Positions 14,452-32,641 are shown, numbered from the stretch's first letter. The stretch is DNA of 64,000 bases from Ignavibacteriaceae bacterium (GCA_030584105.1 CP129491.1:2186503-2250502), one strand, 5' to 3'. Notes: generated by a model from the sequence alone, not told the origin. Numbers and translations: made by a program.

Positions 14452-14839
14452 ATTCGTATCATAAATTTGAAAAAATGTATTGCGAATATAATGAAATGTT
14501 GCCATTTTGAAAGAATTGTCGGTGTTTCAGTGGGGTGAATTGTGATGTGTATCTTGTTTAGGGTAGGGGTTTTCTTTTTTCGTTTCTGTGAGTTTAGGTT
14601 TCCGTGAGTTTAGGTTGTGTTTGAATTGGGGAGTCCTGGTATTTTTTTATTTTAATACCGTTTCAGTTCAACATGATAAAGTAATGCGCAAGGATAGTTA
14701 AAGATGGTTAAGTTTTCAAAAACTGTATATTATGCCGGTTATGCCGGAGAAAATTTGAAAGATGAGAGATTCAAATATGTTTTTTTTGCGTTGTCGGAAT
14801 GGCTTTCTTTCAATAAAACCCAACAAACGGAAGAGCTCA

Positions 14840-15037
14840 ATGGGCAAAATAGTTGTTGAAGCCTTACTGCGGTTATTGATCATAATAGTGGTGGTGTTTT
14901 TCATCCGCACCGCCATGCCTGACGATAAATTCCGGCTGATTTTAACACTGTTCGCCGTAAGTGCGGGGGTTATATTTCCAAAAGCGCTTCCCGAGAACCG
15001 AAATGCTAAAAACCAAGGCTTCCGATGGGCAAAATAG
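14840..15037 (+). pseudogene. duplicated 5' copy of the downstream small membrane-protein gene, with an unrelated tail
   Basis: It encodes MGKIVVEALLRLLIIIVVVFFIRTAMPDDKFRLILTLFAVSAGVI, then diverges and stops at 15037. It lacks the Cys-rich C-terminus of the full copy. Confidence 0.45.
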
Positions 15038-15165
15038 TAGTTGAAGCCTTACTGCGATTATTGATAATAATAGTGGTGGTGTTTTTCATCCGCACCGCCA
15101 TGCCTGATGATAAATTTTGGCTGATTTTAACACTGTTCGCCGTAAGTGCGGGGGTAATCCTTCCC
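14840..15165. repeat. tandem segmental duplication, period 185 bp, c. 140 bp conserved per copy
   Basis: ATGGGCAAAATAGT(T/A)GTTGAAGCC...GTAAGTGCGGGGGT occurs at 14840-14980 and 15025-15165 with a few substitutions. Confidence 0.9.
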
Positions 15166-15336
15166 ATTTGGAACTCCTACAAAAAATTCATCGCCGAAAA
15201 CAAAGAAGTATTGGAAAACTCCCTCTGTTCCCGCTGCCGCCACTTCGATCGCTCCGCCGTTCTCTGCACCAAATACGAAGAGCACCCCCGCAAAGACTAC
15301 ATCCCCTGTGGCGGCAAAGATTTCGAACCAAGGTAA
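15025..15336 (+). CDS. small two-TM membrane protein with C-terminal CxxC...C...C (zinc-ribbon-like) tail
   Basis: A 103-aa ORF with two hydrophobic helices, then CSRCRHFDRSAVLCTKYEEHPRKDYIPCGG. Confidence 0.55.
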   Translation: MGKIVVEALLRLLIIIVVVFFIRTAMPDDKFWLILTLFAVSAGVILPIWNSYKKFIAENKEVLENSLCSRCRHFDRSAVLCTKYEEHPRKDYIPCGGKDFEPR

Positions 15337-15402: not shown

Positions 15403-16647
15403 TTAATTAATATTTTGATTTTCTATTTTGTCGGTATATAATTTTTTGAACCTCGCTCTAATCTCTGGAGTTATCGAAGGAGTCCCTATTCGCGAACGGG
15501 AAGCATGATAACTATCCAACAAATTGTGTATGTATGGTGGTTGAAGTCTTGCGACTCTTGTTATTTTTGACCGATTATTTTTATAAAATAAGGCTTCTCT
15601 TTTGAAAAAGATAGTCCCTCTACGAAAGTCGCATGCTAAACAAGGCTTTGAATTATAGTTTGCCCATGGAAGGATAAATTCAAAATATAGATGGGCTTGA
15701 TTTTCTAGTTTTATTTCTTTTTCAATTATTAGGAGACACTCTATTTCTATTTGTTTTTCTTGTTCATTAGTATAAAAATGTCGAATATCGCATTCAGGTG
15801 TAATAACTATATGATAAGAACCGTTAAGTCTAAATATATCCCCAGTAAATAATTTATCATTTTTGGGGGGATTAGAATATAAAAGATTTTTAACTAACTG
15901 AGACAACCTTTCAACAGCCCTATCATCAAACTTTTTAATTTTTTCCTTTGTGAAATCCTTTTTGATTTGCTTTTTCATCGCCTTTAATAAGGGTCCATCA
16001 TTCTTAATTTTTTCCGCCACTAACCTGTTTAACACCGAAATTACACCCACTGCAGGTTCTAAAAGGTCCAATTTATTAACATATGCAAAATAATCTATCC
16101 AGTTTGTATCATTTCCATCAAGAAAATTTAATTCTTTGTTCATTGTTCTAATCAAAGCATTTAAATAATTTCTCGGAACTTTAAGAGCTTTGTTTTTATT
16201 CGCTAATTTCTTTATTCCTTTAAATATTTTTTTAGATTCTTCAATTTGATTCTTAGGTTTTCGTTCGAACCTTATTCTATCTCCAAATTTTGCGGTGAAT
16301 TCTTTTTTTATTTCATCTGAAATACCCTCTTGAGAATATATATAGATAAGAGAATATATATCCTTTCCCCGTAAAGTGTTTTCTACAGTTAATTCTCCCG
16401 GTTCGATAAGATTCCCTTCATTTTGTGAGAGTTCATTATCATCTTGTGCGAATTTACGATCGAATTGCCAGTCTAAAATAATTGCAACCGGCGAAGCCAA
16501 AGAATCCAATAAAACTTCAAAACGCTGAATCGAATCAACAGGTATTACGAAATACTCCGTTGATTTTTTCAATTCATTAAATAATTTGTGTTCTTCAGAT
16601 TTCTGATCAAATACCTTATCGTCCACAAAGAGTATTACACCCTCCAT
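15403..16647 (-). CDS. receiver (CheY-like) domain protein with uncharacterised C-terminal effector domain
   Basis: REC-like pattern: VILFVDDK (acidic pair), VAIILDWQF (candidate phospho-acceptor Asp), IYIYSQEG, ERKPK. The C-terminal c. 160 aa has HIVITPECD ... CLLIIEKEIK (a D...ExK-like pattern). Its ATG directly abuts the upstream TAA. Confidence 0.6.
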   Translation of the reverse strand: MEGVILFVDDKVFDQKSEEHKLFNELKKSTEYFVIPVDSIQRFEVLLDSLASPVAIILDWQFDRKFAQDDNELSQNEGNLIEPGELTVENTLRGKDIYSLIYIYSQEGISDEIKKEFTAKFGDRIRFERKPKNQIEESKKIFKGIKKLANKNKALKVPRNYLNALIRTMNKELNFLDGNDTNWIDYFAYVNKLDLLEPAVGVISVLNRLVAEKIKNDGPLLKAMKKQIKKDFTKEKIKKFDDRAVERLSQLVKNLLYSNPPKNDKLFTGDIFRLNGSYHIVITPECDIRHFYTNEQEKQIEIECLLIIEKEIKLENQAHLYFEFILPWANYNSKPCLACDFRRGTIFFKREALFYKNNRSKITRVARLQPPYIHNLLDSYHASRSRIGTPSITPEIRARFKKLYTDKIENQNIN

Positions 16648-18930
16648 TTATCCTCCGTTTAATATTTTGGTTTCTGGTTTTACATTAAAATTTCTTTTGG
16701 ATACATCGATTACTTGTTGAAATTCAATCACGAAATTCGCCCCGTCGGTCAGTCTTTCAGATTCTTTTGTGGCAACATAAATTGTTGCATTGATCCTGTC
16801 TAAAATTTCTTTGACGATGTATAAACCTAAACCTCTCCCTTGTGCTTTCATTGAAAAAAATTCCGAAAAAATAAACAGTTCTATACCTTTTTTAACACCT
16901 GGGCCTGTATCAGCAATTGTTAGTTTCTTTTCCAATGAATCAATTTTGAATATGATTCTTTTATTTTTACTCCCTTTCAAATTCACCCAATAAATGGCAT
17001 TGTCAACAATGTTGATTAAGAATTGTAAAACTAATCCTAAATTGGTCCTTAACATAATGTCATCATCAGCGGTAATTTCTATTTTAATTTTATTCTGAAT
17101 TTCACTATCAAAATATTTCAATATTTTTTTAATTGATTGTAATAAACTAACCTCCTTAATTTCTCTTCTTTGAAACTTGAAAAGAGGTTGAATTATCTGA
17201 AGTTGTTCATACACAATTTTGATAATCTCCTGGACTTCTTTTAACATAGTTTCAGTCTCTGAGAAATCCATCCTATCACTCTTGATCTTAAGCAAACTGT
17301 TATTGATAATATTATTTAGTCTTGAGAGTAACATGAAAGTATCATGGGAAGATTTTTCAACTGCCATCCCAAGCCCTGCCAAATCTTCAACGGTTCGAAG
17401 TTTTAAGATAGTATTCTTTTGAAATTCTTCAATGCTTTTCTTAAGTTTATTAGCAGATTCAATAATTTTAAGATCGGTTCTTTCTTCTAAAGATTCTGTG
17501 AATTCTGTAATTGCGTCAGAAATTGACTGGTATGGTGCATTCGTATTTTGGGTAGATTTTAACTCCTTATGTATTTTATCAATTTTAATTTCTGCGTGAA
17601 ATATTTGTACAATCGATAGAACCACTGCTGCAAATTCGTCAAATATCCCACCAGAATTCATCAAACCTTGCCTGCTTGATGTATCTTTTAAATCTTTATT
17701 ATGCTCCTGAGAGATATATACAAAACCGACTATGTCACTATAACTAGGGTAATCACCGGCTTTTTGAACTGATCGCAACTTATCAAGTTCCAACCAATCA
17801 TATCCTTTCTCGCCAAACGGATATACTCTTACTCCATCTCTTAAAACATAAATAAAATGCTTTTTAAAAGCCTGAAGTTGTTTTCTATTAAGCTTTGAAT
17901 AATCTGGCTTTTTAAGATCATTTGCGAATAACGAAAATTTAAATTCACCAACAGATAACTTACTCTTATTGGACAGATACCCTTTCTTTTTCTTATTTAG
18001 TGCTTGAAGATCATAATTCTCTTTAGCTAAAATTTTATTGTCAAAAATTCTAATTATCTTGGAAAAGGCTCTCATCGGGTTTTTGGAGTTGTAGATAAAC
18101 TGAAGCTTCCCTTCATTATCAATCGTCCCGTACATCTCATAATCTGAATCCATTAAAATTTCTTTTAATGAATATTGGGATTCTTTAGTGATTAACTCAC
18201 CCTCCCAAATCATCTTAACATTAAAATCAGAGATAATTTCCTGTTTCAATTCTTCAGCTTTTGGGTCTTCAGCAGGAATCAATTTCTCGATTGATTCAAA
18301 AACACTCCTAAAATCATCTTTAGCCCACTTTTCTCTCAAATCAGTAATTCTTATAACCGTCCCACTCGATTTGATTAGTTCCCCATTTTGAAACTCCGTA
18401 ATAGTTGGTTCTATTTCACTAAGGAGTTTATGCTTTTTTGAACCTTCATCAGTGAAAAGCGTCGGTTCATCATCATCTAAGCCTTCGAAACTTACTTCCA
18501 AACAAAATTCTGATCCTTCATCTTTTCTGGTATAAACACTTACCTTTCTTCCAATTTTGTGAATCGCGAATCGTCCAATTCCTTTCTCACCTTGAATTGT
18601 TCGGCCAAGCTTCGTTACATTGTCCCTATTTATTTTTTTATCAAGTTTGTTAGGTGTTGCTGGTCGAAGCCACACTTCTTTCAGATCATTCAAACCCATC
18701 CCCAAACCATTGTCGATTATTTCAATTGCTTCCTCTCCACTATTTTTCGTTGAATTGGATTGGGAACCAGAGTCGTATTTAATAGTAACTTCAGTAGCAT
18801 CAGCATCGTATGAATTTTTTATTAACTCTGTAAGAGCAATTTTCCTATCGGTAATCAATTGATCACCCAATATGCTCAACAGTCTTGCGTACGGCTCAAA
18901 TTTATATTTAATTTTTTTATTTTTTGGCAC
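16648..18930 (-). CDS. double GHKL protein: N-terminal MORC/Hsp90/MutL-type ATPase plus C-terminal histidine-kinase-type ATPase
   Basis: N-terminal motifs ELIKNSYDADATEV, IEIIDNGLGMG and GEKGIGRFA. C-terminal motifs NIVDNAIYW (N box), IADTGPGV (G1) and GRGLGLYIV (G2), preceded by a possible H-box, VEKSSHDTF. The GTG start overlaps the upstream TAG by 1 nt. Confidence 0.7.
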   Translation of the reverse strand: MPKNKKIKYKFEPYARLLSILGDQLITDRKIALTELIKNSYDADATEVTIKYDSGSQSNSTKNSGEEAIEIIDNGLGMGLNDLKEVWLRPATPNKLDKKINRDNVTKLGRTIQGEKGIGRFAIHKIGRKVSVYTRKDEGSEFCLEVSFEGLDDDEPTLFTDEGSKKHKLLSEIEPTITEFQNGELIKSSGTVIRITDLREKWAKDDFRSVFESIEKLIPAEDPKAEELKQEIISDFNVKMIWEGELITKESQYSLKEILMDSDYEMYGTIDNEGKLQFIYNSKNPMRAFSKIIRIFDNKILAKENYDLQALNKKKKGYLSNKSKLSVGEFKFSLFANDLKKPDYSKLNRKQLQAFKKHFIYVLRDGVRVYPFGEKGYDWLELDKLRSVQKAGDYPSYSDIVGFVYISQEHNKDLKDTSSRQGLMNSGGIFDEFAAVVLSIVQIFHAEIKIDKIHKELKSTQNTNAPYQSISDAITEFTESLEERTDLKIIESANKLKKSIEEFQKNTILKLRTVEDLAGLGMAVEKSSHDTFMLLSRLNNIINNSLLKIKSDRMDFSETETMLKEVQEIIKIVYEQLQIIQPLFKFQRREIKEVSLLQSIKKILKYFDSEIQNKIKIEITADDDIMLRTNLGLVLQFLINIVDNAIYWVNLKGSKNKRIIFKIDSLEKKLTIADTGPGVKKGIELFIFSEFFSMKAQGRGLGLYIVKEILDRINATIYVATKESERLTDGANFVIEFQQVIDVSKRNFNVKPETKILNGG

Positions 18931-20198
18931 TATCGTTTCTTAAAAATGAGTATATGTTCTTTAGGATACACTTTAACACTATTCAATTCGCTTGGAGAAG
19001 TAAATCTCCCAGATATCGGGTGACGAGTTGTTGGAATCTGCTTCAATGAAATATTTCTCGTAATTCTTTTTTCTAAATAAAAACTTTCTTCTCTCATCAA
19101 ACTGATCAAAATATCCGAGGTGGGTATCGTAACTTCCCTAAGCTTACTATCTCCAACAACCATACAACAGGTTGCTCCTGGTTTTAAAATTCGATGTATT
19201 TCCTGAATTACCTGTTGCATTGAAATAAAATAATTCTCAATTTCTTTCGCAATTTTCTTATTTTTCACTGCTAATTGTGAAACAGTATCTGAGGCTAACA
19301 GACAATTTATTTCAGCTTCAATTTTTTCAGAGTAAAATGTTCCAATAAATTTTTTTCTAAATTCTCTAAGATCACTAAAAAAGTTAAACACATAACCAGA
19401 TAATTGATGAATATCCGCATATTCGTAAGATGTCGCATAAGGAGGGGAGGTAATTACAAGATCAACAGAATCATTTTCAAGTCCAGTATCCCGCGCATCT
19501 CTGAGATGAATTTCACTTTGAATATCCAATCGGTTCTTTTTACTTAGATAGCTATGAAATTCCATGTTCTTTTTCCACATTTTTTTAATCTGATATTCAA
19601 AGAGATTGAAAGGGTCCTTAATCTGTTTCTTTGGATCAATTTGTGGTTTAGTGCTATCTTGAAGCCAACGGCTGGAAGTTTTGAGAATGTTCGATAATCC
19701 AACTTTTAGAAAAGTCTCAAGTTCTTTATTATCTACTTCTTCGATACATTTTTTCAAATAGCCGATTTTGTTTTTCTGCTCTGGGCAAAACCAATAGTTA
19801 AGCCTCGGGTGATCGGATATATAGTATTTTTCTTCCTCGTTGTAGTTGCTAAACCACTCTTGAATTATTTCTAATAAATTTTGATGCGAACCTGGAGCAA
19901 TAGTAGTTATTTTCGATTTTGTTATCATTTCAGCAACTGGATTAACATCAAACCCAATAGACCTGTAGCCATGACTTTTTGCCTCAACCAATGTTGTCCC
20001 ACAACCGGCAAATGGATCAACAATAAGACAATCCTCTGTAGCGTAGGTCTCTATCAATTTGGAAACAATCTGTGGAATAAATTTTGCAGGATACCTGTGG
20101 TAACCGTGGGTGTAGCTATCGATAGACCTGTGCCCGGCAAAAGACCACTCATCTGAACATTCGTTAACTTTACTGTTCTCAACTGCTACACTCAACAC
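18930..20198 (-). CDS. DNA methyltransferase (N4-cytosine or N6-adenine; motif I precedes SPPY)
   Basis: HRYPAKFIPQIV..IVDPFAGCGTTLVEAK (motif I region) and DLVITSPPYATSYEY (motif IV). AT-rich. Confidence 0.8.
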   Translation of the reverse strand: MLSVAVENSKVNECSDEWSFAGHRSIDSYTHGYHRYPAKFIPQIVSKLIETYATEDCLIVDPFAGCGTTLVEAKSHGYRSIGFDVNPVAEMITKSKITTIAPGSHQNLLEIIQEWFSNYNEEEKYYISDHPRLNYWFCPEQKNKIGYLKKCIEEVDNKELETFLKVGLSNILKTSSRWLQDSTKPQIDPKKQIKDPFNLFEYQIKKMWKKNMEFHSYLSKKNRLDIQSEIHLRDARDTGLENDSVDLVITSPPYATSYEYADIHQLSGYVFNFFSDLREFRKKFIGTFYSEKIEAEINCLLASDTVSQLAVKNKKIAKEIENYFISMQQVIQEIHRILKPGATCCMVVGDSKLREVTIPTSDILISLMREESFYLEKRITRNISLKQIPTTRHPISGRFTSPSELNSVKVYPKEHILIFKKR

Positions 20199-20390
20199 AG
20201 AACTCCTCGATTATTTTATGAAAGAAAATTTTCTTTTTTTTGATTTAGAATTCAAAATATTTAACCACTAAGTTAGAAATAATTTAATTACAAAAAAAGC
20301 AATGTTGAAATTACTTATATTGCCAATTCAAATTAACTACAAATATTTTACCACATTTTCTTATAAAAGCACCCAATCCCCCCCCCACTA

Positions 20391-22043
20391 TCACCCCTCG
20401 ATAAGTTTGATTTTAATTTTTTTGGTTACGGTATAGAGTTCGTTTTCTTCGGTGAGGATGCCGGGGGAGATCTCCTCAATATCCACATAGTTTTTTTTGG
20501 GCAGGGCGACGAACTCGCAGAAGTCAAAAAGGCGACTGCGGTCTTTCAGGACGGGTGCAAAGTCAGTCAGGTTATTTTTGTTTATGTGGAACTCGGCAGT
20601 AGCAATAGTGCTGTCGAAGACGATTTCGAAAAAGGAGTCGCTCGCCGGTTTGCTTTGAAAATCGTCAACACTGAAGGTTCCGGGCTTAAGTGAGATATCG
20701 CTGCTATAATCCGGCACATAATATGTTACCCGCATGCGCTCGAAGGTGCTTCTTAAATCGGGATTTGTTTTTCGAAGTGTCGCCTCAGAGCCTTTTCTGC
20801 TTCCGGTATCAGCCGGGTCTCCCTGCCTGAAGTCGGTTCTTGGGGCATTTTCGGAGGGGTCTCCCCCCTCTGAGGGGTATCTTTTATCGGGGGAGAGTTG
20901 CCCGCCGAGGCTGGCGGCACTTCCGGATTCAGAGGGGTTTTTTCCGGCGGAGGCGCCAGTTCCCTTTAGGTCAAACTCGCCAAAATTCCCCGTTTTCAGT
21001 ACCTTTTCCAACAATCGACGGGTTGTTTTAATCCCGTGGAAGTTGTAAAGGGAAACCAAAAGTGTAATTAGCAGAAGGCACAGCGCTGTGAAAATTAAGA
21101 TTTCGTTGGAAATGCCGCCTACGATCTCTTGCCCGCGATTGCTCGTACGGGATTGAGTGTCGGTGCCGACTGAATCATGCCCAAAGGAAGCAGTAAGTAT
21201 TTCGCTTTGGGTGCCGCTTCTGCTTTGTGTGCTACCTGCCGTGCTACGGGGATTAAAGTTCGCACCAGCAGAGGTTTCGCTTTGGGTGCCTGTGGAAACG
21301 GTGCCGCCTCTATTGCCTAAACTTCCGGCTTTTAACTCATCGGACAGAGTGCCGCCTCTATTGCCTAAACTTCCGGCTTTTAACTCATCGGACAGAGTGC
21401 CGCCTCTATTGCCAAAATCACCCGCTTTTGTACCACCGGACAGAGTGCCCGATACTTCCAAAACGGCAAGTGCACCCAGGAAAGCAAAAACTATTGCAAT
21501 CCTAAAGAGCAACGCCCGGTAACTTAAACACTTTCTGTTTTGAGGGTTGGGCTGTGTTTTACTTTTTGCCGCACCACCGGACAAAGTCGCAACGCTTAAA
21601 CACTTTCTGTTTTTGGGGTTAGGCTGTGTCTTAGTTTTTGCCGCACCACCGGACAAAGTCGCAACTTCTATATGCTTTTTGTTTTGGGGGTTTCCGCCGT
21701 CACCCGCCAATTCATAGTCTGTACAAAAAGGAATTTCATCCATATTATCCCGCTTGCCTAAGTTTTTATTGGGGTTACCCGCCACTTCACAGCCTGCACG
21801 AAAAGGAATTTCATCCATACTATCCCGCTTTTCCGGGTTTTGATCGGGATCGCCCGCCAATTCATAGCCTGTACAAAAAGGAATTTCATCCATACTATCC
21901 CGCTTGCCTAAGTTTTTATTGGGGTTACCCGCCAATTCACAGCCTGCACGAAAAGGAATTTCATCCATACTATCCCGCTTTTCCGGGTTTTGATCGGGAT
22001 CGCCCACCACTTCACAGCCTGTACGAAAAGGAATTTTATCCAT
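20391..22043 (-). CDS. repeat-rich membrane protein, unknown function
   Basis: The 550-aa ORF has 5 x 25-aa repeats (MDEIPF(R/C)(A/T)G(C/Y)E(L/V)AG(N/D)P...KRDS), 2 x 24-aa repeats (VATLSGGAAK(T/S)KTQPNP(K/Q)NRKCLS) and 3 x 16-aa repeats (GTLSDELKAGSLGNRG). It also has two hydrophobic helices and a non-repetitive c. 130-aa C-terminal domain. Confidence 0.5.
   Translation of the reverse strand: MDKIPFRTGCEVVGDPDQNPEKRDSMDEIPFRAGCELAGNPNKNLGKRDSMDEIPFCTGYELAGDPDQNPEKRDSMDEIPFRAGCEVAGNPNKNLGKRDNMDEIPFCTDYELAGDGGNPQNKKHIEVATLSGGAAKTKTQPNPKNRKCLSVATLSGGAAKSKTQPNPQNRKCLSYRALLFRIAIVFAFLGALAVLEVSGTLSGGTKAGDFGNRGGTLSDELKAGSLGNRGGTLSDELKAGSLGNRGGTVSTGTQSETSAGANFNPRSTAGSTQSRSGTQSEILTASFGHDSVGTDTQSRTSNRGQEIVGGISNEILIFTALCLLLITLLVSLYNFHGIKTTRRLLEKVLKTGNFGEFDLKGTGASAGKNPSESGSAASLGGQLSPDKRYPSEGGDPSENAPRTDFRQGDPADTGSRKGSEATLRKTNPDLRSTFERMRVTYYVPDYSSDISLKPGTFSVDDFQSKPASDSFFEIVFDSTIATAEFHINKNNLTDFAPVLKDRSRLFDFCEFVALPKKNYVDIEEISPGILTEENELYTVTKKIKIKLIEG
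21299..21450. repeat. 48-bp tandem repeat, about 3 copies
   Basis: GTGCCGCCTCTATTGCC(T/A)AA(C/A)... units lie within the 550-aa ORF. Confidence 0.85.
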
Positions 22044-22090
22044 ACTATCCCGCTTTTCCGAGTTTTGATTGATTTCTCCGCCCTGACCAC
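21669..22090. repeat. 75-bp tandem repeats in alternating A/B flavours (150-bp super-unit), 5.5 copies
   Basis: GGAATTTCATCCATACTATCCCGCTT... recurs. The array runs past the annotated ATG (22043) into the 5' flank. Confidence 0.85.
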
Positions 22091-22484: not shown

Positions 22485-25007
22485 TCAATTAACCGGTTCA
22501 TTCTCAAAAGTTTGTCCGTATTCTTTTGCACTTATTACAGTATTATACAGCCCGACTGAGGTTTCATTGTGGCGGTTTACTCCTGTGTAAGCAAGGCTGG
22601 GGTCTTCATACCTTTTGAATTTATAGACGGCGTCGTTCATAAGCCCTTCATTGAAAAGCCCAAGACTCACTAAAAGCTCGAAATCGGGAATTGATAACCC
22701 GGTTACCCGCTTGAAAAGGTCAGGTTCAAGTTCCCTAATTATATCCTGCAGGCTAAACTCCCGGAAATCAGTCAGATATAAGAAAACCGGTATTCTGGTA
22801 GCAAACTTGATCAGTTTTTCCTGAATCATTTTCCTTTTCGATTTATACTCTTTTTCCTCAGCAGTTAACTCTCTTTTTTCTTTATCTGAAAGTTCACGGT
22901 CGTTCGCGCTGTTTTTCAGTTTTTTGATAGTTTCCGATTTATTAATAATAGTTTCAATATCCTGATTCAACGATCTGAACCCCTCAATACTCATCAGCGC
23001 AGCCATAGCTTTCTCATTTGCCAGCAGGCGCCTGAGCGTGTTATTGTCAACATTTACGAGCAGAGCGCTCTCCCATCTTCTTGCAAGAAGTGTCGCTGTG
23101 GTACCACTCATCGCCATATCCAAAACCCCTGCAGCGTCTATCTGTTTCATTGAACTGCCATCGTAGGCAAGAATAGGCAAAAATGAGATAAACTCAGCCA
23201 CTTTTTCTTCAGGATTTTTATTATTCACATCAAGCCGGCAACTGTAGTCAGCAATTTGCCTTAAAGCCCGGTCGGGTGCAAAATCGAAAACATAACACTC
23301 TCTTTTCAGAATCTCTTCTTGGTTCGGGTTTTCGCCGTCAGGGTTCTTGATCACCCACGGTGTCTGCACCCGGAATGCCGCCTGAAAATAGGTTTCGGGG
23401 CTTGAGGAATTTCTTAGCATAAAAATGCCCGACCATGGCTTAACCGAAACGCCGGTGGTAAGTTTTCCGCATGAAAGCGTTATAGTTCTGGTTTTAACGG
23501 GGTTATCCATCTCTTTAGAAACGGGCGGAAGTGCCTCTGCGCCAATACCAGCCCCTGAACCTGCAGCAACCACAATCCCGAACTGCCGGTAGAAATCATT
23601 TTGCTCCTGCCTGAAAAGATTAGCCATTGCGTGGCACGCAGAAACACTCGGAAGAAACCAAAAAGTATGAGAAAGAATCTGAAGAAATCGCCTGTCGGAG
23701 TAGGGAAACGGCGGCTTTTTATCACCAAGTTTCAGATTATCAACCGTAGCCGGTGAGTGTGCGCCTCTTATCAAATCGAGCCATTTTTGAACTTCATTTT
23801 CATGAATAAATTTCGCAGCACTGAATTCGCCTTCAGCCTTAAAGAACTCGTTAAGGTCAAACTCGTTAAACTCACCCTTCAGCGCAATATCTTTAATTGC
23901 CGGCGGCAGTTGATAAGTCAGCATCACCATTCTTGGTAATGATTCGTAGGGGTTAGGTTCGTTTGGGTTGCTCCACTCAGCTTTTGCGCGTTGTTCATCC
24001 GAGTAAGTCCAGTTAAAAATTTGTTCTTCGATAAACTCACCCGAAGCAATCGCTCTGAAAGGTGTTCCGGAAAGATAAAGATAGTGGTTTGTGGTTATCG
24101 GCATAAATTCTTCGTCAAAATAATCAATACCGACACCCTCACCGAACTGAATCTCTTTTTTATCTTCCTCCTCAAAAAGGTCTTTTGCGTTCTCCCTCCA
24201 TGCGCCGTAGTGATACTCATCCAAAATCACGCAGTCCCAGTTTGTTGTGTGCACCCACTCGTTTTTTGGCTTTATTCCCCCCGCTTCATTTTTTCCGAGA
24301 AAATCCTGAAACGAACCAAAACAGACCAAAGGTTTGGAATTGTCGCTAATTTCAAAAGTTAAACCTTTTTCGGAATAGAATTGCCATCCCGCAAAATCGA
24401 TATGGGAAAGAAGGTCTTCTTCCCACGCTGTTTTAACCGCCGGTTTGAAGGTAAGCACGAGGATTTTCTTCCACCCCATTCTTTTTGCCAAGTGATATGC
24501 TGCAAATGTTTTACCGAATCTCATTTTTGCATTCCAAAGGAAGTGAGGCGTTCTTTCTTTGTTTTCCGGCTCGGATTTAAAACTTTCAAAATAGGCGATG
24601 GTTTTTTCAATCGCAGCTTCCTGCTCGGGGCGCAATTTGAATGTTTGTGTTCGATTTGCCTCGTTAGTCACCCCCTTTTGAACGGCAAGTATAGCCGATT
24701 TAACCTCTTTAACAGTACATCTGAACCATTCACCGGCGGGATTACTAATCCCCATTTTTCTCAAATATTTGTGAACATCTTTATCCATGAAAGATGAGCC
24801 GTCGTCTCTCATCGCTTTTTCTTCAAGAACGATTCTGTAGGGGAGTTCACCCGGACGGCGGGTTGGGTATTGCCCGGCAACACGGGTTTTTGCGTCCCTT
24901 GTTGTATATCCGACTTTTAACAGCCCGTTGTACTTTGGGTTCGTATCTTCATAAGCGTAAATTGTCGGGTTAACTTCAGGCCTTAATGGGAAAAATTTCT
25001 CAGACAA
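22485..25007 (-). CDS. T5orf172/GIY-YIG-like domain fused to SF2 DEAH helicase (candidate restriction/translocase subunit)
   Basis: N-terminal IYAYEDTNP..GLLKVGYTTRDAKTRV...GEWFRC. Walker A RFGKTFAAY, DEAH box VILDEYHYGA, and LYLSGTP. Confidence 0.7.
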   Translation of the reverse strand: MSEKFFPLRPEVNPTIYAYEDTNPKYNGLLKVGYTTRDAKTRVAGQYPTRRPGELPYRIVLEEKAMRDDGSSFMDKDVHKYLRKMGISNPAGEWFRCTVKEVKSAILAVQKGVTNEANRTQTFKLRPEQEAAIEKTIAYFESFKSEPENKERTPHFLWNAKMRFGKTFAAYHLAKRMGWKKILVLTFKPAVKTAWEEDLLSHIDFAGWQFYSEKGLTFEISDNSKPLVCFGSFQDFLGKNEAGGIKPKNEWVHTTNWDCVILDEYHYGAWRENAKDLFEEEDKKEIQFGEGVGIDYFDEEFMPITTNHYLYLSGTPFRAIASGEFIEEQIFNWTYSDEQRAKAEWSNPNEPNPYESLPRMVMLTYQLPPAIKDIALKGEFNEFDLNEFFKAEGEFSAAKFIHENEVQKWLDLIRGAHSPATVDNLKLGDKKPPFPYSDRRFLQILSHTFWFLPSVSACHAMANLFRQEQNDFYRQFGIVVAAGSGAGIGAEALPPVSKEMDNPVKTRTITLSCGKLTTGVSVKPWSGIFMLRNSSSPETYFQAAFRVQTPWVIKNPDGENPNQEEILKRECYVFDFAPDRALRQIADYSCRLDVNNKNPEEKVAEFISFLPILAYDGSSMKQIDAAGVLDMAMSGTTATLLARRWESALLVNVDNNTLRRLLANEKAMAALMSIEGFRSLNQDIETIINKSETIKKLKNSANDRELSDKEKRELTAEEKEYKSKRKMIQEKLIKFATRIPVFLYLTDFREFSLQDIIRELEPDLFKRVTGLSIPDFELLVSLGLFNEGLMNDAVYKFKRYEDPSLAYTGVNRHNETSVGLYNTVISAKEYGQTFENEPVN

Positions 25008-25063
25008 CGATTTTCTCCTCTCTAATCGCGGAGTTATGAATGTTGCCGGTTTTCAATAAAATT

Positions 25064-26602
25064 TTATTCTTTATTTCCATTATTCAATTCCATCGGGCGG
25101 ATCATTGAGTCAATAAATGCAATTTCCTCTTCAGTTAAACCGTATTTTGCATAAAGCTTTTCGTCGGTCCAGCTCTCATTAAAATCCTGCATTGGCACGA
25201 ACTGATAGACTTTTGATGACGCATGCTGTGTACTTTTACGCAATAAAACCAAAAATCTGAATAATTTTGTTTTTATATAACTTATTGCGTTTTCAGCAAG
25301 AATTTTAGTTTTAAATGGCCCTATCATAACATAAGTTTCGGAGCATATAGTAGAAGGTGCACCATAAAATGGTTTATTAATAATCTGATGTGGATAGGAT
25401 TCGCCAGCACCGTAAGCCATTGTAATAAAAACTTTATGAGCATCAATCCAATCTTTATTAACCTGGATTATCTCCCTACTACAATATGAAATTGATTTGT
25501 TCCCATAAATTAACAAATCTCTTTCGGTATCTCTTTGCTTATTTCCTTTATAAAATGTCCTAAGTCCAAATGGTTTTTGATTACTTACAAGCTCGGCAAA
25601 AGATTTCTCTTTTAAAAAAACAACTTTCCGATAAATTGAAACAGCTTCATTGAACCTAATAAAAATGTCAGAATCTTTTTCAAGAAGATATCTTTTATCT
25701 GTCGATTGCAAGTCACCTTGCTTTGTAGTTATTTCACACATACCAGAATAATCTCTATCCCATAAAAAATAGCAAACCCCACCCTTTATTTCTACGCCAG
25801 GAAAGCATTCAGTGGAAATTGGATAATCAACTAATTTACTTATCCGTCTATCATTCAACATCGTAATTCGGAAGTTATCTAATCCTCTTCCCCCTGAAAA
25901 CCATCTTGAAGGAATAACCATGGTAATAAATCTTGGTTCTAAGGATTTCGCTTGTAAGACAAATTTATCATAAAGTGGGATTGCACCCCCTCGAATTCTA
26001 ACCTCTGTTTGAGAATCACCTCCATCACTCAACTGATAAGGGGGGTTACCAACAATAACATCAAACTTCATGTTAAATAATTCTTCCGGATTTTCTGTGT
26101 GAATAAATTGATAAGCGTGTGTTTCAAGTTCTTCGCCCCTGTCATATACGGATTGGCTCGCACCGCAGAAAGAGCACCGTCCGTTCACCCAGGTATGTTC
26201 AATCCTGTTGTATAAAATATTTCCTTCTTCGGAGGTAAACCCCGTGCTGACGGAATACTTTCCGTTAGCCAGTCTTGAACAATAAAGAGTCCTCCTGGAT
26301 ATAAGGGATGTAATATCTGTGATAGCAATTCCAAATATCTGATTGGTATAAATATGGTTGATTCTTTCCTGAAGATCGGGGAATTTACTTTTAAGCCCTC
26401 TGTTAAGCCGTTTCGCAATTTCACGGAGAAAAACCCCCGATTTGCAAACGGGGTCCAAAAATTTTACATCGGGGTTGCTCCATAATTCAGGGGGCAACAT
26501 ATCCAACAAACTGTTTGCTAACTCCGGCGGTGTGAAAACCTCGTCACTGCTCAGGCTTGCCAAACAAGAAAGAACATCGGGATTGTAAACCGACTCATTC
26601 AT
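25064..26602 (-). CDS. Eco57I/TaqI-like N6-adenine DNA methyltransferase with C-terminal presumptive target-recognition domain
   Basis: SDEVFTPPELANSLLDML, motif I-like FLDPVCKSGVFL (first Gly position is Lys) and motif IV VIVGNPPYQ. The C-terminal c. 300 aa are visibly more AT-rich. Confidence 0.75.
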   Translation of the reverse strand: MNESVYNPDVLSCLASLSSDEVFTPPELANSLLDMLPPELWSNPDVKFLDPVCKSGVFLREIAKRLNRGLKSKFPDLQERINHIYTNQIFGIAITDITSLISRRTLYCSRLANGKYSVSTGFTSEEGNILYNRIEHTWVNGRCSFCGASQSVYDRGEELETHAYQFIHTENPEELFNMKFDVIVGNPPYQLSDGGDSQTEVRIRGGAIPLYDKFVLQAKSLEPRFITMVIPSRWFSGGRGLDNFRITMLNDRRISKLVDYPISTECFPGVEIKGGVCYFLWDRDYSGMCEITTKQGDLQSTDKRYLLEKDSDIFIRFNEAVSIYRKVVFLKEKSFAELVSNQKPFGLRTFYKGNKQRDTERDLLIYGNKSISYCSREIIQVNKDWIDAHKVFITMAYGAGESYPHQIINKPFYGAPSTICSETYVMIGPFKTKILAENAISYIKTKLFRFLVLLRKSTQHASSKVYQFVPMQDFNESWTDEKLYAKYGLTEEEIAFIDSMIRPMELNNGNKE

Positions 26603-27248
26603 TTTCCGTAAGCCTCAAAAAATGAGTAATTGGGTACTCAGCCACGGGAGTGGGTATGAACGCCTTTTCGCCAAGGTCAGAAAACAAGTTTTCTCCTTCA
26701 AGAGGTTGACTTTCAAGAAGGTTAGCCATTGTGTAGTCGCGTCTTTTTATCATATTATCGTTTACGAAGCTCCACTCACTGAAAACTATAGGTTCTGCCT
26801 TTTTATCGGGCGTTTTAAGAGTTAGGGCGTCACCCCAAAGAATATTACGATTTAAGATAAAACGGACTGAATTAAAACACTCGTGCCGGCACTTTTCTTT
26901 ATAAAGCCTTGAATATCGATCGGTGAAAATTGCAAATAACCGCTCGCGACACTCAATTACATTGTCAGGAAGGATATCGATACCATAAATTGAGGAAACA
27001 GCGAGCACACCATAGCGCTCCCATTCGAATTGACTGCTTTTGTAACGGGAATCGACAACCGTTAGTTTACGGCGAAGTATTTCGACGAGGAAATTCCCCG
27101 TTCCGCAAGCCGGCTCTAAAAACCGTGAATCGATCCGCTCGGTTTCCTGTTTTACGAGATCGAGCATGGCGTTAACCTCGCGTTCGGAGGTGAAAACCTC
27201 GCCGTGATCGGCGACCCGCTGCTTCGATTTAACCTGCATAGCGGTCAC
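26595..27248 (-). CDS. DNA methyltransferase N-terminal half (motifs X-I-II-III, no catalytic NPPY)
   Basis: HGEVFTSEREVNAMLDL, canonical motif I FLEPACGTGNFL, IYGIDIL and WGDAL. It ends at 217 aa without an NPPY motif and overlaps the downstream MTase gene by 8 nt. Confidence 0.6.
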   Translation of the reverse strand: MTAMQVKSKQRVADHGEVFTSEREVNAMLDLVKQETERIDSRFLEPACGTGNFLVEILRRKLTVVDSRYKSSQFEWERYGVLAVSSIYGIDILPDNVIECRERLFAIFTDRYSRLYKEKCRHECFNSVRFILNRNILWGDALTLKTPDKKAEPIVFSEWSFVNDNMIKRRDYTMANLLESQPLEGENLFSDLGEKAFIPTPVAEYPITHFLRLTENE

Positions 27249-27339
27249 AACTGATGATGATTGTTATGTGTGGCACTATAAACCCTGTTTTTGTTTCGCA
27301 AATTAGCAATAAATTTTTTATCCGCAAAGCGAAGAGGCT
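27118..27339. repeat. direct repeat, left copy (222 bp): first 44 codons plus 91 bp upstream of the 217-aa MTase-fragment gene
   Basis: Near-identical to 32420-32641 at an offset of 5302 bp. A few mismatches occur only in the distal c. 40 bp. Confidence 0.95.
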
Positions 27340-27545
27340 GCAAGCAGCGGTTACTGATCAACCATAAGTTGCCATTCTACAACAGGGCGATTACCAAACT
27401 ACAAACACGGTTGGCAAACTGCATAATCAGCACAGTTGTTACTCAGGTATAATTAAACCGGTGAAACATTAGTACAGTATGGCTGGTGACCGTGCAGACT
27501 TGAATCAGTTCAGCAATAAACACCCTTCAGAAAACGATCTCAAAA

Positions 27546-28693: not shown

Positions 28694-31495
28694 TTATGCC
28701 GCTATTTCCTCTTTTACCCTTGAAATACATTTTTCAAGGCTATGCCACACTTCATAATTCCAGAATCTCAGAACTTTCCAGCCTTCTCTTTGCATTGTAT
28801 AATCTCTCACATTATCATAACTGCTCCGCGTTCCCGGAACGGCACCTTCATGCCCGCTGCCGTCAACTTCAATGCAGATTTTTTTATCGTCAACAAAAAG
28901 CGCGATATCCATTCTGTACGCAAAAAAATTATACTGGCATTCCGGTTCAAATCCTTCTTCACGGAGTCTTGTTGCCATAATTTTTTCTTCGGGTGTCACG
29001 GGTTCGTGATTGTTTGAAGGGTTAAGGTTTTTTTCCGCATATTTTGCCAAACGACTTAATAATTTGCATTTTGATTTTTTACAAAACTGTTTGTTTCCAA
29101 CGACGATTAAATTAGATTTTGCCCGGGTCAATCCCACATTTATAAGATTGTCGTTCCCTGAATAAAAGAACTCGTTATTATTTTTTAATTTACCCTCAAT
29201 CTCGATTGAGTAACTGACTCCAAGAGAGAAAATCATTACATCTTTTTCATCTCCCTGAAACCGGTGAATTGTATCAATCACAATTTCTTTATTTCCTTTA
29301 TTCTTAGAAAGCAGCGGGGTACATGCCTCCAGTATCTTTTGGACTTGTAATCGAAACGGTGAAGTAATTCCTATACTTGTTATTTCTTCAGAATCAATTA
29401 ATACACTCAAAATTTCTTTGCATTTTTCAATTTCTTTCGAAAGAATAAATTTATTATAAAGCGGTATATATTCATCTTTCACATCAATCCACTCAAAAGT
29501 TGGTTTTTCCCCCCAATTATTTAATTCCAGATAATTAGTACGAATTTTTAATTTATTTCCGTAAAACTCATTGTTTGAAAATGAAATAATCTCTTTTTTT
29601 GATCGAAAATGTTCATCGAGCATTATTTCAGAAGAACCGTCAATATTTTTTGAACGGTGCGCTATTAGTGACAAGATTGAACTTACCCCAAACTCCCACT
29701 CATTGAACTTCATCAAATTAAAATACTGTTTGAATAGTGTTTTACGCCTTTGGGATGAAAGATTTGTAATATGATTAAGCTGTTTTTCATCACCAACTAC
29801 AATTAAACTTTTCGCCCTCAACATTAAACAGAGAGTGGAAGGTATATCGCATTGGCTCGCTTCATCTATTATAACATAGTCAAATATTCCCGGCGAAAGT
29901 GGGAGTTGCCCCGAAACAGACAGGTTTGAAACCGTCCATATTAAAAGAAATTTTCTTATTGGTAAAAATTTTTCCTTAAATTCAACTCGTTCCTGCTTAC
30001 TGTTGAATTGATTATCTATCCAGAAACTAAGTAATCGCTGATATTCATTCAGTAATTTTTTTTCGTTTTCATCGCGGAAAGAATAGTTTTTCCTGATCGT
30101 TAATATTAATATCGCTTTATTAATATTTAATAATTCTTCCCTTTTTCGAAAAATGAGGTCTGTAAGTTCTTCAACGCGCTTCAATTTTTCCGCCCTTAAA
30201 ATCGCTTTGTGATACCTGACCATTTTCTTTATTCTCGGAGAAATTAGGGCAGCTTTCGGAATTGAGTTTAATTTTTGAAGGTTGTAATAAATTTTTTCGT
30301 AATTAACGCTTCTTCCTTTAATATATTTTCTATATTCTTCAGAAATACTTAATCGGGTGTTATTTATTTCTTCCTGTTCAATTAACAGTTGATCAATCTC
30401 TCGTTCAATTTGTTTTGATTTAGCGGAAAGATCACGCAATTTCTGATCTTCCGCCGGCATAAAATTGTTATAATCCTGAATTTCCTGAATATTCGCTTTT
30501 AAAATAGATACTAAGTCCTTTTGACCTTCTGATCTTCCCAGTTTTAGCATAAAAGGCAGTTGGTCAAGGTATTTGTCAATTCGTGACATTACCGTTTCTA
30601 TCGCCTTATGGTTATGGCTGCTGAAAAGAATCGATTTGTTTTTCAAAAAAGCATTAAATATTATGTTTATTACAACATCTGACTTGCCGGTGCCGGGAGG
30701 TCCCTGAATATTGGTTATGCCTGAGGATAAAGCCATTTTAACCGCTTCTTTTTGTGAAGCATTAAGAGGTGTAAACATAGAAACATCTTCGTTCCCGGAT
30801 ATTTTACGGTTTGGCTCAAACAGATATTTTAGTGCACTTTCTGAAAAAAAATCATCCAAAGACTTTGAATTTAATTTGGCAATTTCTTTTAACTCGAACT
30901 CGAGTCCTTTTGTGAAATTAGATTTTTCACAGATAAAAAACGACGCTGCATTGGTATAAATATTTTTTTCCTTCTGTTCTTCCGGGTCCGTACTGATAAA
31001 TTGTTCCAAAGTTTTCATCAATTCTTCAACAATATTTCTCTTTTTCCCGTTGATTGGCTCAGTTAAATTAAGAGCTTCAACCTGCCTCCGAAAACCGTTC
31101 AGGTCAATTCCCATTTCTTCAAAAAAAGTCGAATTAAACCTGAACTCTTCATAATCCACTAAAACAAGTTCTTTCATTTCAGTGAGTATAAAAACAAAAG
31201 CAGGAATTATTTTTTTGTATTCTTTCTGATGAAAGATTGGGAAACCAATTACAAAATCTGTTACTTTTGCTTTTTCATCATTTATACCGAGTCTTTCTTT
31301 TATCCGTTGTATAGAATCAGCAGGAAAGTTCTCATTTTTTTGAAATAACTCAAACTCTTCTTCCTCCAAATTGAGGTAAGTTCTTTTCTTTTTCTTTTCA
31401 TCTTTGGCAACTTCTGTGGCAATTTTAAATTCTCTGTCTTCAATAACATACTGATGATAGTAGTCAATCAGCTTTCTAAAATCTTCTTTTTTCAT
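28694..31495 (-). CDS. SF1B (Upf1/Dna2-like, AAA_11/AAA_12) helicase fused to C-terminal DUF559/Vsr-like PD-(D/E)xK endonuclease
   Basis: Walker A IQGPPGTGKS, Walker B VIIDEASQC, plus VVGDEKQL, LDEHFRS, IHRFQGDEKDVMIFS and NVGLTRAKSNLIVVG. The C-terminus reads YRMDIALFVDDKKICIEVDGSGHE...REGWKVLRFWNYEV. Confidence 0.85.
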   Translation of the reverse strand: MKKEDFRKLIDYYHQYVIEDREFKIATEVAKDEKKKKRTYLNLEEEEFELFQKNENFPADSIQRIKERLGINDEKAKVTDFVIGFPIFHQKEYKKIIPAFVFILTEMKELVLVDYEEFRFNSTFFEEMGIDLNGFRRQVEALNLTEPINGKKRNIVEELMKTLEQFISTDPEEQKEKNIYTNAASFFICEKSNFTKGLEFELKEIAKLNSKSLDDFFSESALKYLFEPNRKISGNEDVSMFTPLNASQKEAVKMALSSGITNIQGPPGTGKSDVVINIIFNAFLKNKSILFSSHNHKAIETVMSRIDKYLDQLPFMLKLGRSEGQKDLVSILKANIQEIQDYNNFMPAEDQKLRDLSAKSKQIEREIDQLLIEQEEINNTRLSISEEYRKYIKGRSVNYEKIYYNLQKLNSIPKAALISPRIKKMVRYHKAILRAEKLKRVEELTDLIFRKREELLNINKAILILTIRKNYSFRDENEKKLLNEYQRLLSFWIDNQFNSKQERVEFKEKFLPIRKFLLIWTVSNLSVSGQLPLSPGIFDYVIIDEASQCDIPSTLCLMLRAKSLIVVGDEKQLNHITNLSSQRRKTLFKQYFNLMKFNEWEFGVSSILSLIAHRSKNIDGSSEIMLDEHFRSKKEIISFSNNEFYGNKLKIRTNYLELNNWGEKPTFEWIDVKDEYIPLYNKFILSKEIEKCKEILSVLIDSEEITSIGITSPFRLQVQKILEACTPLLSKNKGNKEIVIDTIHRFQGDEKDVMIFSLGVSYSIEIEGKLKNNNEFFYSGNDNLINVGLTRAKSNLIVVGNKQFCKKSKCKLLSRLAKYAEKNLNPSNNHEPVTPEEKIMATRLREEGFEPECQYNFFAYRMDIALFVDDKKICIEVDGSGHEGAVPGTRSSYDNVRDYTMQREGWKVLRFWNYEVWHSLEKCISRVKEEIAA

Positions 31496-32419: not shown

Positions 32420-32550
32420 AAAAACCGTGAATCGATCCGCTCGGTTTCCTGTTTTACGAGATCGAGCATGGCGTTAACCTCGCGTTCGGAGGTGAAAACC
32501 TCGCCGTGATCGGCGACCCGCTGCTTCGATTTAACCTGCATAGCGGTCAC
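32420..32550 (-). pseudogene. 5' fragment (44 codons) of the MTase-fragment gene, broken just before motif I
   Basis: MTAMQVKSKQRVADHGEVFTSEREVNAMLDLVKQETERIDSRFL is identical to the N-terminus of 26595..27248. The reading frame then runs into unrelated sequence, giving ORF 32293..32550. Confidence 0.85.
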
Positions 32551-32641
32551 AACTGATGATGATTGTTATGTGTGGCACTATAAACCCTGTTTTTGTTTCG
32601 CAAATTAGTAATAATTTTTTTATCCGCAAAGCGATGAGGCT
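32420..32641. repeat. direct repeat, right copy (222 bp)
   Basis: Matches 27118-27339. It contains the same ATG (32550) and the same 91-bp upstream region. Confidence 0.95.

Follow-up and report, generated by a model that had tools for sequence, protein, structure and literature searches.

Here we describe a methylase-kinase-receiver operon on the minus strand, between positions 15403 and 20198, of a 64,000-nucleotide (nt) stretch of DNA from an Ignavibacteriaceae bacterium (GCA_030584105.1, CP129491.1:2186503-2250502), which was analysed at its full length and is called the window below. In the order in which they are read, the open reading frame (ORF) list gives gene 1, a DNA methylase of 422 amino acids (aa; 18930-20198), gene 2, a 760-aa fusion of a GHKL ATPase with a histidine-kinase core (16648-18930), and gene 3, a 414-aa receiver protein (15403-16647). 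An earlier reading, made from the sequence alone, had put the trio forward as a candidate phosphorelay-gated, restriction-like defence system. Judged by analogy with its published relatives, the block is on balance probably a horizontally mobile, cytoplasmic three-gene defence operon, kin both of the two-component-like elements associated with restriction-modification (R-M) systems and of the anti-phage system Ambrosia.

Organisation of the operon

The three genes are packed as tightly as the sequence-only reading had stated, and the coordinates and both junctions were confirmed. Where genes 1 and 2 meet (CGA TAG TG CCA), the G of the methylase's TAG doubles as the first base of the kinase's GTG, an overlap of 1 nt; where genes 2 and 3 meet (GGA TAA ATG GAG), the TAA directly abuts the ATG with a gap of 0 nt, and GGAGGA lies a short way 5′ of that ATG. 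The trio looks like a translationally coupled unit that is inherited together, in which the start of gene 2 appears to be coupled to the methylase. The block is also AT-rich, as had been claimed, with 31-35% GC over 15-20 kb of the window against 43-54% on either side. Upstream of the methylase lies an AT-rich intergenic region of 192 bp (20199..20390, minus strand), presumed to be the promoter region of the operon, although a scan of the operon for sigma-70 promoters and terminators gave nothing better than shuffled sequences. No XRE-type controller gene was found in 20151-20700, neither as an ORF nor, by tblastn with the XRE protein of related loci, as a remnant. No tRNA genes were found at the island boundaries, and no direct repeats were found flanking the trio.

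The methylase and the kinase

All motifs that the sequence-only reading had quoted are found in the translated proteins, and the most important codons were checked again in the DNA. Gene 1 (18930..20198, minus strand) is, as proposed, a DNA amino-methyltransferase, matched by PF01555 (1.9e-21), by PF02086 (1.6e-9) and over its full length by the PADLOC type II methylase model MTase_II PDLC03322 (1.9e-58). Motif I (DPFAGCGTT) stands at residue 61 and motif IV (TSPPY) at residue 250, about 190 residues later, an order that, as read from the protein, is that of the alpha class. TSPPY is invariant in 41/41 gene 1 orthologues, and SPPY motifs are typical of N4-cytosine enzymes. By its motifs and family matches, gene 1 encodes a complete amino-methyltransferase.

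Gene 2 joins two Bergerat-fold modules, as had been suggested, and both ATP sites keep their Bergerat residues without exception in 32 homologues, the set to which the invariant gene 2 residues given below refer. The N-terminal module (residues 18-204; 18319..18879, minus strand) is a Bergerat-fold ATPase of the paraMORC/Hsp90/MutL type, which is matched by PF13589 at residues 31-156 (6.5e-20) and carries E35, N39, D73xGxG and GxxGxG. Hsp90 N-domain chains were matched as well, and the start of the NCBIfam BbrUII/HgiDII model NF050001 matches residues 18-204 only (2.7e-21). The middle region (residues 205-470; 17521..18318, minus strand) is conserved, with R364, D365, R368, Y370, P371, G373, E374, D378, W379, R420 and G422 invariant and forming part of the motifs RDGxRVYPxGE..DW and SxRQG. 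It has no PDB-profile or Pfam match and no nuclease signature, and a hidden nuclease in this region was dismissed, since neither PDB profiles nor Pfam returned anything. Its motifs resemble the Hsp90 catalytic loop, and it may represent the transducer or S5-like domain of GHKL proteins.

The C-terminal third is a histidine-kinase core. The helices of the dimerisation and phosphoacceptor (DHp) domain occupy residues 502-610 (17101..17427, minus strand), and the histidine-kinase catalytic (CA) domain occupies residues 611-745 (16696..17100, minus strand), with a PF02518 match at residues 635-738 (1.3e-17). A profile built from the 32 homologues matches the histidine-kinase chains ZraS and ThkA at 1e-14 to 1e-15, aligning residues 502-723 with the DHp and CA domains of ZraS (9jfj) and placing H529 on the phospho-histidine of VAHEIRNPL. 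The possible H-box SSHDTF of the sequence-only reading is therefore borne out: it lies in VEKSSHDTF (H-box EKSSHD), the H529 codon was re-read at 17344-17346, and H529 and D530 are invariant. The CA domain has the N box DNAIYW, the G1 box DTGPG and the G2 box GRGLGL, and here N640, D643, N644, D674, G676, G678 and G698-G702 are invariant. No transmembrane or hydrophobic segments were found, nor any classical sensor domain in the Pfam scan. On the strength of these alignments, gene 2 encodes a cytoplasmic protein in which a paraMORC/Hsp90-type GHKL ATPase is joined to a complete DHp and CA histidine-kinase core.

The receiver protein

Gene 3 has no family match in Pfam, PADLOC or NCBIfam, and at full length it has no match among PDB sequences; a protein identical to it is recorded for an Ignavibacteriales MAG. 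Its AlphaFold model has a predicted local distance difference test score (pLDDT) of 80 overall and above 90 over residues 1-132 (16252..16647, minus strand), and a Foldseek search of the PDB with the full-length model returned 38 matches at E<=1e-3, all of them receiver domains. The protein thus begins with the CheY-like receiver that had been proposed. The phospho-acceptor is D59 (AIILDWQF; codon 16471-16473), accompanied by D9/D10, S105 and K130; D9, D59, S105 and K130 are invariant in 52 gene 3 sequences, and D59 and K130 are 100% conserved in 171 sequences that cover two tiers of the superfamily. All the residues of a phospho-acceptor site are present, and the receiver is, as far as these residues tell, competent.

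Because the full-length search gave receiver domains alone, residues 133-414 were modelled separately (pLDDT 79.5), and the model shows a seven-helix bundle, a small beta domain and a C-terminal helix. The bundle (residues 133-256; 15880..16251, minus strand; pLDDT 83-94 in the predicted models) has conserved positions at P158, an aromatic residue at 161, N166, Q170 and W183, and no family or structure match was found for it in Pfam, PADLOC, NCBIfam, the PDB, Foldseek or BFVD. The beta domain with the C-terminal helix (residues 257-400; 15448..15879, minus strand) is, from the model and its conservation, the candidate output module. It contains the invariant C-terminal residues G269-D270 (D270 codon 15838-15840) and C286-D287 (codons 15787-15792), which were re-read in TGDIF...ITPECDIR. 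Among the 171 sequences G269 is conserved at 100%, D270 at 98%, C286 at 100%, D287 at 87%, P371 at 96% and G388 at 99%, and a conserved tail motif, R..(K/R)L..P(Y/F)I...Q..Y..Y.GR.G.P, follows downstream; E285 and H319 are conserved in the close subfamily only. Since G269-D270 and C286-D287 lie at opposite ends of one beta hairpin, they are expected to be neighbours in space, and this Asp/Cys-Asp cluster is the leading candidate functional site of the module.

The fold of this module can be named only tentatively. With the model of residues 133-414, Foldseek found nothing in the PDB at E<=1e-3, and a BFVD search found nothing; MazF/Kid toxins, which have the known SH3-like barrel of CcdB and MazF, recur among the non-significant matches, making up 19 of the top 21 (E 0.1-1.4, probability <=0.95, target-normalised template modelling score 0.47-0.66). 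A profile search of PDB sequences with the C-terminal alignment gave nothing significant, and an hhalign comparison of that alignment with four approximate MazF/Kid sequences was null (P=0.63). A word-index search with the same alignment for other architectures gave only 2 hits and was uninformative. We tentatively describe the modelled beta domain as a MazF/Kid-like barrel.

Conservation across genomes

Whether the trio is conserved across genomes, a check that the sequence-only reading had called for, was addressed by scanning species-representative genomes, which gave 50 loci, 44 of them with enough upstream DNA to be informative. In 44/44 informative loci the methylase, kinase and receiver genes follow one another in this order on one strand, an arrangement far beyond chance, and, barring five loci with an extra intervening gene, the methylase-kinase junctions range from -35 to +14 nt. 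Most of the 50 loci come from Bacteroidota (Flavobacteriales, Cytophagales, Chitinophagales, Bacteroidales and Saprospiraceae), and the others include Pyrinomonadaceae, Kapaibacterium and metagenome-assembled genomes (MAGs) of Hyphomicrobiales, Campylobacter and Paenibacillaceae. Relatives of gene 3 form about 830 clusters at 50% identity (E<=1e-3), 55 of them close; those of gene 2 outnumber them by far and are better conserved, with identities of about 45%.

Median pairwise identity falls from 57% for the methylase to 44.5% for the kinase and 38.5% for the receiver protein. The identity matrices of kinase and receiver are closely correlated (Mantel r=0.75), and the methylase correlates with either partner at r=0.43-0.49, the value with the kinase being 0.49; 0/1000 permutations reached these values. 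Kinase and receiver proteins, as their sequences indicate, co-evolve. The copy in the window is an outlier of the clade, with at most 49% methylase, 45% kinase and 33% receiver identity to any other copy.

No recurrent fourth gene was found beside the trio among the related loci. In 17 loci (for example L013 5291-5491, L025 5226-5510 and L001 6284-6496) a 70-aa XRE/HTH_3 gene does precede the methylase on its strand, ending a few bases short of its start, and its product is similar to Ambrosia AbrR and to the controller (C) proteins known from R-M systems; an HNH gene is present in only 2/50 loci.

Two departures from the common arrangement were seen. The extra gene between methylase and kinase, in five loci of Flavobacterium and Chryseobacterium species and a Bacteroidota MAG, encodes a further GHKL protein of about 816-821 aa (L004/L015 5274-7739; L017 815-3265; L018 4326-6776; L020 4282-6741; L023 4326-6776), which has a weak match to positions 1-370 of the BbrUII/HgiDII restriction-enzyme model and may be the dedicated restriction subunit of a four-gene variant. 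In L030, L054 and L056 all three genes are split into several ORF fragments; either the operon is truly decaying there or the assemblies contain frameshift errors.

Mobile carriers and neighbouring genes

The trio has a defence-island setting, both in the window, where R-M and helicase genes stand nearby, and at the related loci, where mobile elements were found as well. Related loci are flanked by genes for type III restriction endonucleases, AbiE, AbiL, PARIS AriA, Thoeris ThsA, Lamassu LmuA, Septu PtuA and GmrSD, and by genes of mobile elements (relaxase, MobC, RteC and TraG). Single loci lie inside a Tn7-like element, between IS91/integrase copies, or beside GmrSD and HEPN genes.

Gene 2 matches 147 plasmid records, and full-length kinase homologues stand on 51 records. 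A conjugative plasmid of Allorhizobium carries methylase, kinase and a 409-aa receiver, which aligns over its whole length with the gene 3 family (97.6% probability) and retains GD...ECD. Of the 147 records, 41 are from Campylobacter, and the C. jejuni plasmids listed are conjugative and carry a full-length kinase homologue. In one of them, CP132116.1 (L059 2131-6596), the kinase homologue is followed by a 340-aa 'response regulator' that has only the C-terminal tail motif in common with gene 3, and a dcm methylase gene is oriented convergently to the pair. This kinase-receiver system of a clinical pathogen appears to be uncharacterised. A tblastn search of the plasmid collection with gene 3 gave no match, although the plasmid kinases have divergent partners. 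In the phage collection, two 'Bacteriophage sp.' records, unannotated, 5-6 kb long and derived from human faecal samples, hold full-length gene 2 homologues, and the other eight matching records match part of gene 2 only. A match on a Rhizobium gallicum plasmid was rejected as the same system, being a paraMORC that lacks the kinase core and stands beside an unrelated 438-aa protein.

In the window itself, the trio sits within a defence island that also holds a split type IIG-like R-M system and a helicase-DUF559 gene. At 22485-26602 (minus strand) lie a T5orf172/GIY-YIG-like protein with a ResIII helicase (840 aa) and an Eco57I-type methylase (512 aa), which correspond to the N-terminal and the C-terminal half, respectively, of a single PADLOC type IIG model, PDLC03626; the pair looks like a split type IIG-like enzyme and thus a second R-M-like system, beside which 26595-27248 (minus strand) encodes a 217-aa N-terminal methylase fragment. 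Direct repeats of 233 nt with 97% identity (27118-27350 and 32420-32652, their starts 5.3 kb apart) surround a low-GC segment, which may be a mobile defence cassette. The segment encodes, at 28694-31495 (minus strand), an SF1 helicase fused to a DUF559/MTES_1575 endonuclease-like domain, with Mokosh MkoA/C-like and Hhe-like matches, along with two proteins that have no match. Within it, at 31627-32112, 216-nt copies start every 54 nt, pointing to a 54-nt tandem repeat inside a 246-aa ORF (31498-32238) that has no family match. A second low-GC island (41486-47442, 28-35% GC) encodes an HD-domain dGTPase-like protein (PADLOC dGTPase, 1.3e-11), a 164-aa DarG-like protein, and ORFs of 911 and 171 aa that have no match.

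The immediate flanks of the operon are repetitive on both sides. Just 3′ of gene 3, a 140-nt direct duplication with 94% identity (14840-14979 and 15025-15164) yields two overlapping small plus-strand ORFs (14762-15037 and 15025-15336), which have a strongly hydrophobic N-terminus in common and no family match, the second also having a Cys-rich tail. Directly upstream, a 550-aa ORF (20391-22043, minus strand) consists mostly of tandem repeats, whose units are 75 nt long at 21700-22074, 48 nt at 21294-21449 and 72 nt at 21523-21666; hydrophobic segments are present in it, and no family matched it.

Homology to Ambrosia

Ambrosia (AbrR-AbrA-AbrB-AbrC-AbrD) of Pseudomonas aeruginosa, named and validated against phage in a bioRxiv preprint of 2025, consists of an XRE protein, an N6 methylase, a HATPase kinase, a receiver and an HNH protein, and its host range is Gammaproteobacteria (10.1101/2025.09.30.679545). 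All of its genes and tested catalytic residues are needed, including AbrC D60 and AbrB N40, whose mutation abolishes defence (10.1101/2025.09.30.679545). Its expression rises on infection, the authors propose receiver-driven transcription, methylation by AbrA gives phage no protection, and no host toxicity was observed (10.1101/2025.09.30.679545).

Ambrosia sequences were taken from Table S1, and gene 2 was compared with them by BLASTP, the authors' own hidden Markov model cut-off being 500 bits. Gene 2 aligns with AbrB residues 1-399 at E=3e-19 and 24% identity, colinear over gene 2 residues 9-423, and N39 aligns with AbrB N40, the same Bergerat Asn. At about 750 aa it also has the domain pair that defines the AbrB type, HATPase_c_3 followed by HATPase_c. 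The D59 strand of gene 3 aligns with the D60 strand of AbrC (SxVAIILDxQ), yet gene 3 is not the short receiver of Ambrosia: AbrC has 209 aa, whereas gene 3 has 414 aa with a helical and beta extension of about 280 aa. The XRE gene of the 17 related loci stands before the methylase as AbrR does in Ambrosia, but the window has none; nor did jackhmmer searches with AbrD and with a Flavobacterium HNH find an HNH gene in 10-27 kb of the window. The hosts differ too, being Bacteroidota, Acidobacteriota and Ignavibacteriota for the clade of the window.

Discussion

The sequence-only reading of the trio thus stands in part: a phosphorelay with a methylase in a defence-type context is upheld, and the nuclease fold and the novelty of the architecture are not. 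A defence role for the operon is plausible because Ambrosia is a validated relative whose AbrB is homologous to gene 2, and the mechanism can be imagined as follows. The N-terminal GHKL ATPase would be the sensor, an ATP-driven clamp that reports infection or the state of the DNA, and the methylase could form a complex with gene 2 and serve as its specificity subunit, by analogy with R-M systems of types I and III; both of these steps are speculative. Activation of the sensor would lead to autophosphorylation on H529 and phosphotransfer to D59, which in turn would release the helical and beta C-terminal module of gene 3, and this module would stand in for the separate HNH nuclease of Ambrosia as the output.

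That the module displaced a nuclease is suggested by the fact that HNH is essential in Ambrosia and absent from 48/50 loci here, while the receiver has gained about 280 conserved residues with an Asp/Cys-Asp cluster. Since the receiver protein is separate and diffusible, a cell-wide effector or switch is likelier than a cut bound to one site. Taken to its end, this leads to a bolder proposal that we hold tentatively, and with some doubt: the 280-residue C-terminus of gene 3 may be an undescribed phosphorylation-gated effector, a MazF/Kid-like barrel with an Asp/Cys-Asp site that replaces HNH, and the trio may form a self-contained immune system with a MORC-like ATPase sensor, a His-Asp relay as amplifier, a diffusible effector, and methylation as a mark of self or of the target. 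Modification-protected restriction is still conjecture for the trio, given that methylation by AbrA did not protect phage in Ambrosia.

Several points weigh against this account of a defence operon with its own effector. The fold of the output domain is weakly supported, with Foldseek E-values of 0.1-1, parts of the beta domain at pLDDT 55-75, and a null profile comparison with MazF; moreover, the long beta1-beta2 loop that bears the catalytic Arg of MazF is absent from the gene 3 sequence, and the Asp and Cys-Asp residues have no MazF counterpart. The kinship with Ambrosia is also uneven: gene 3 is not an orthologue of AbrC (hhalign probability 0.3%, with BLASTP matching the 11-residue beta-3 strand alone), gene 1 is of the PF01555/PF02086 SPPY type and unrelated beyond motif I to AbrA, a gamma-class N6_Mtase, and Ambrosia requires HNH and XRE genes, neither of which the window trio has. 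Finally, the authors of Ambrosia favour transcriptional control by the receiver, and the failure of AbrA methylation to protect phage counts here as well.

The main alternative, which we consider possible if somewhat improbable, is that the kinase and receiver are only regulators, a transcriptional or allosteric switch in which the gene 3 C-terminus, by binding DNA or the methylase, would only switch on the operon or the methylase once phage infects, and that the damage is done by induced methylation, by an unlinked modification-dependent nuclease or by other genes of the island. It would fit the infection-induced expression of Ambrosia and the receiver-driven transcription proposed for it, as well as the small XRE controller gene directly 5′ of the methylase in 17 related loci; the 124-residue helical bundle, as modelled, could bind DNA, and GmrSD and further type IV-like genes adjoin some loci. 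However, Pfam finds no helix-turn-helix or winged-helix domain in gene 3, Foldseek finds no match to the output domains of response regulators, the trio recurs in 44 loci without a fixed nuclease partner, and the invariant Cys-Asp/Asp cluster resembles a catalytic or metal site more than a surface that reads DNA. An ordinary environmental two-component system beside an orphan methylase would explain why public annotations name gene 2 homologues 'sensor histidine kinase', but it is hardly credible, being effectively refuted by the 44/44 synteny with the methylase and the overlapping junctions, and it also has against it the missing transmembrane or classical sensor domain, the lack of a match to a DNA-binding output, the low-GC island, the mobile contexts and the defence neighbours.

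The mobility of the trio raises the question of whether it serves itself rather than the host. R-M systems are known to act as selfish addiction modules, and the trio might likewise stabilise its mobile element by post-segregational killing, as an addiction or epigenetic module with no primary antiviral role. Its presence on conjugative plasmids and in Tn7-like, IS91/integrase and contexts like those of integrative and conjugative elements speaks for this, as does its patchy phyletic spread, which implies horizontal transfer, and addiction-like behaviour of R-M systems has been discussed for the related elements (PMC8011034). Yet the related Ambrosia protects against phage without host toxicity, and the neighbouring genes are overwhelmingly defence genes; although addiction and defence are not mutually exclusive, we judge an addiction module unlikely. 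More improbable still is the PD-(D/E)xK core that the sequence-only reading had suggested for gene 3, by which the C-terminus would be an endonuclease licensed by phosphorylation in a classical modification-protected restriction system. In the model, D270 and E285-x-D287 lie on successive hairpin strands at a spacing like that of PD-(D/E)xK enzymes, the operon holds no other nuclease, and the lack of a Lys after E285 might be set aside because true members such as BamHI reportedly lack it too. The claim nevertheless fails on the conservation, since E285 is limited to the close subfamily and the invariant residues are G269, D270, C286 and D287; no profile matches, no restriction-endonuclease fold is among the Foldseek matches, and methylation failed to protect phage DNA in Ambrosia.

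If the trio is indeed a defence operon, it bears on more than this locus. Few of the bacterial immune systems characterised so far signal by phosphorelay, Detocs and Ambrosia being, to our knowledge, the main examples, and how MORC-type ATPases sense DNA or infection is an unsettled question in bacteria and eukaryotes alike. The clade of the window pares Ambrosia-type logic down to three genes, without a separate nuclease or regulator gene, and since the unexplained step is confined to a single domain in which three residues are invariant, the question of what the kinase drives can be tested directly.

Comparison with known systems

The sequence-only reading did not recognise the architecture of the trio as that of a named system, but it had been described in 2021. 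Bellieny-Rabelo et al. reported kinases that combine HATPase_c_3, a new DHp domain 'HEF_HK' (PF19191) and HATPase_c, and that adjoin a receiver-like 'Response_reg_2' protein (PF19192) with no other domain, the methylase lying immediately upstream (PMC8011034). Their set, established computationally, comes mainly from proteobacteria, is linked for the most part to C5 methylases and Vsr, stands in R-M-rich neighbourhoods with ties to paraMORCs, and was proposed to regulate R-M; a C-terminus of the receiver is not described there (PMC8011034). The architecture of gene 2, soluble and with HATPase_c_3, a DHp domain with a His-acidic pair and HATPase_c, is identical to that of these kinases, and the trio has the same adjacent kinase and receiver genes with the methylase upstream (44/44 loci). 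The published models nonetheless miss it: PF19191 has no match in gene 2 at E<=0.1 and does not appear in the Pfam lists precomputed for 120 homologues, PF19192 has none at E<=1 in 52 members of the gene 3 family (one distant relative reaches 16.7 bits, the cut-off being 27), and neither matches the plasmid examples. PADLOC likewise gave nothing on genes 2 and 3 beyond a GHKL restriction-endonuclease model, and the match of gene 2 to the BbrUII/HgiDII GHKL restriction enzymes is N-terminal only, with scores far below the 550-bit cut-off. Because both the published Pfam models and PADLOC 2.0 miss the clade, its copies in Bacteroidota and Acidobacteriota currently carry no labels other than 'sensor histidine kinase' and 'hypothetical protein'.

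ParaMORCs were defined as R-M components by Iyer, Abhiman and Aravind in 2008 (PMC2292703), and gene 2 is like paraMORC/MORC ATPases, including that of the GHKL-Shedu protein VcSduA (PMC12137116), in having an N-terminal Bergerat ATPase and a conserved middle domain in an R-M-like operon. ATPases of this type are thought to gate an effector (PMC2292703, PMC12137116). In gene 2, instead of a nuclease, a histidine-kinase core is joined to the ATPase and would signal to a separate receiver, and the canonical two-component residues are present on both sides of that predicted relay: the phospho-His and the N, G1 and G2 boxes in gene 2, and the DD, D, S/T and K in gene 3. Nor is the trio a classical type II R-M system, since, as the sequence-only reading had held, no restriction endonuclease came out of the Pfam, PADLOC and NCBIfam scans; no nuclease family was found in the three proteins, and Foldseek gave no nuclease fold for the gene 3 models.

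The defensive two-component system Detocs (DtcA-DtcB-DtcC) reportedly passes a signal from a kinase to a receiver-fused effector in phage defence, and in this logic the trio would be like it. Detocs is said to have no methylase and no GHKL-ATPase sensor module, and to include a receiver protein that acts as a buffer and an effector that is a PNP nucleosidase, neither of which was detected in the trio. A figure legend in DefensePredictor (2026) lists a predicted, unvalidated system with HATPase and REC domains. By these sequence comparisons, the trio is a divergent relative of a published anti-phage kind, and what is new is the three-gene form without XRE or HNH genes and its extended receiver.

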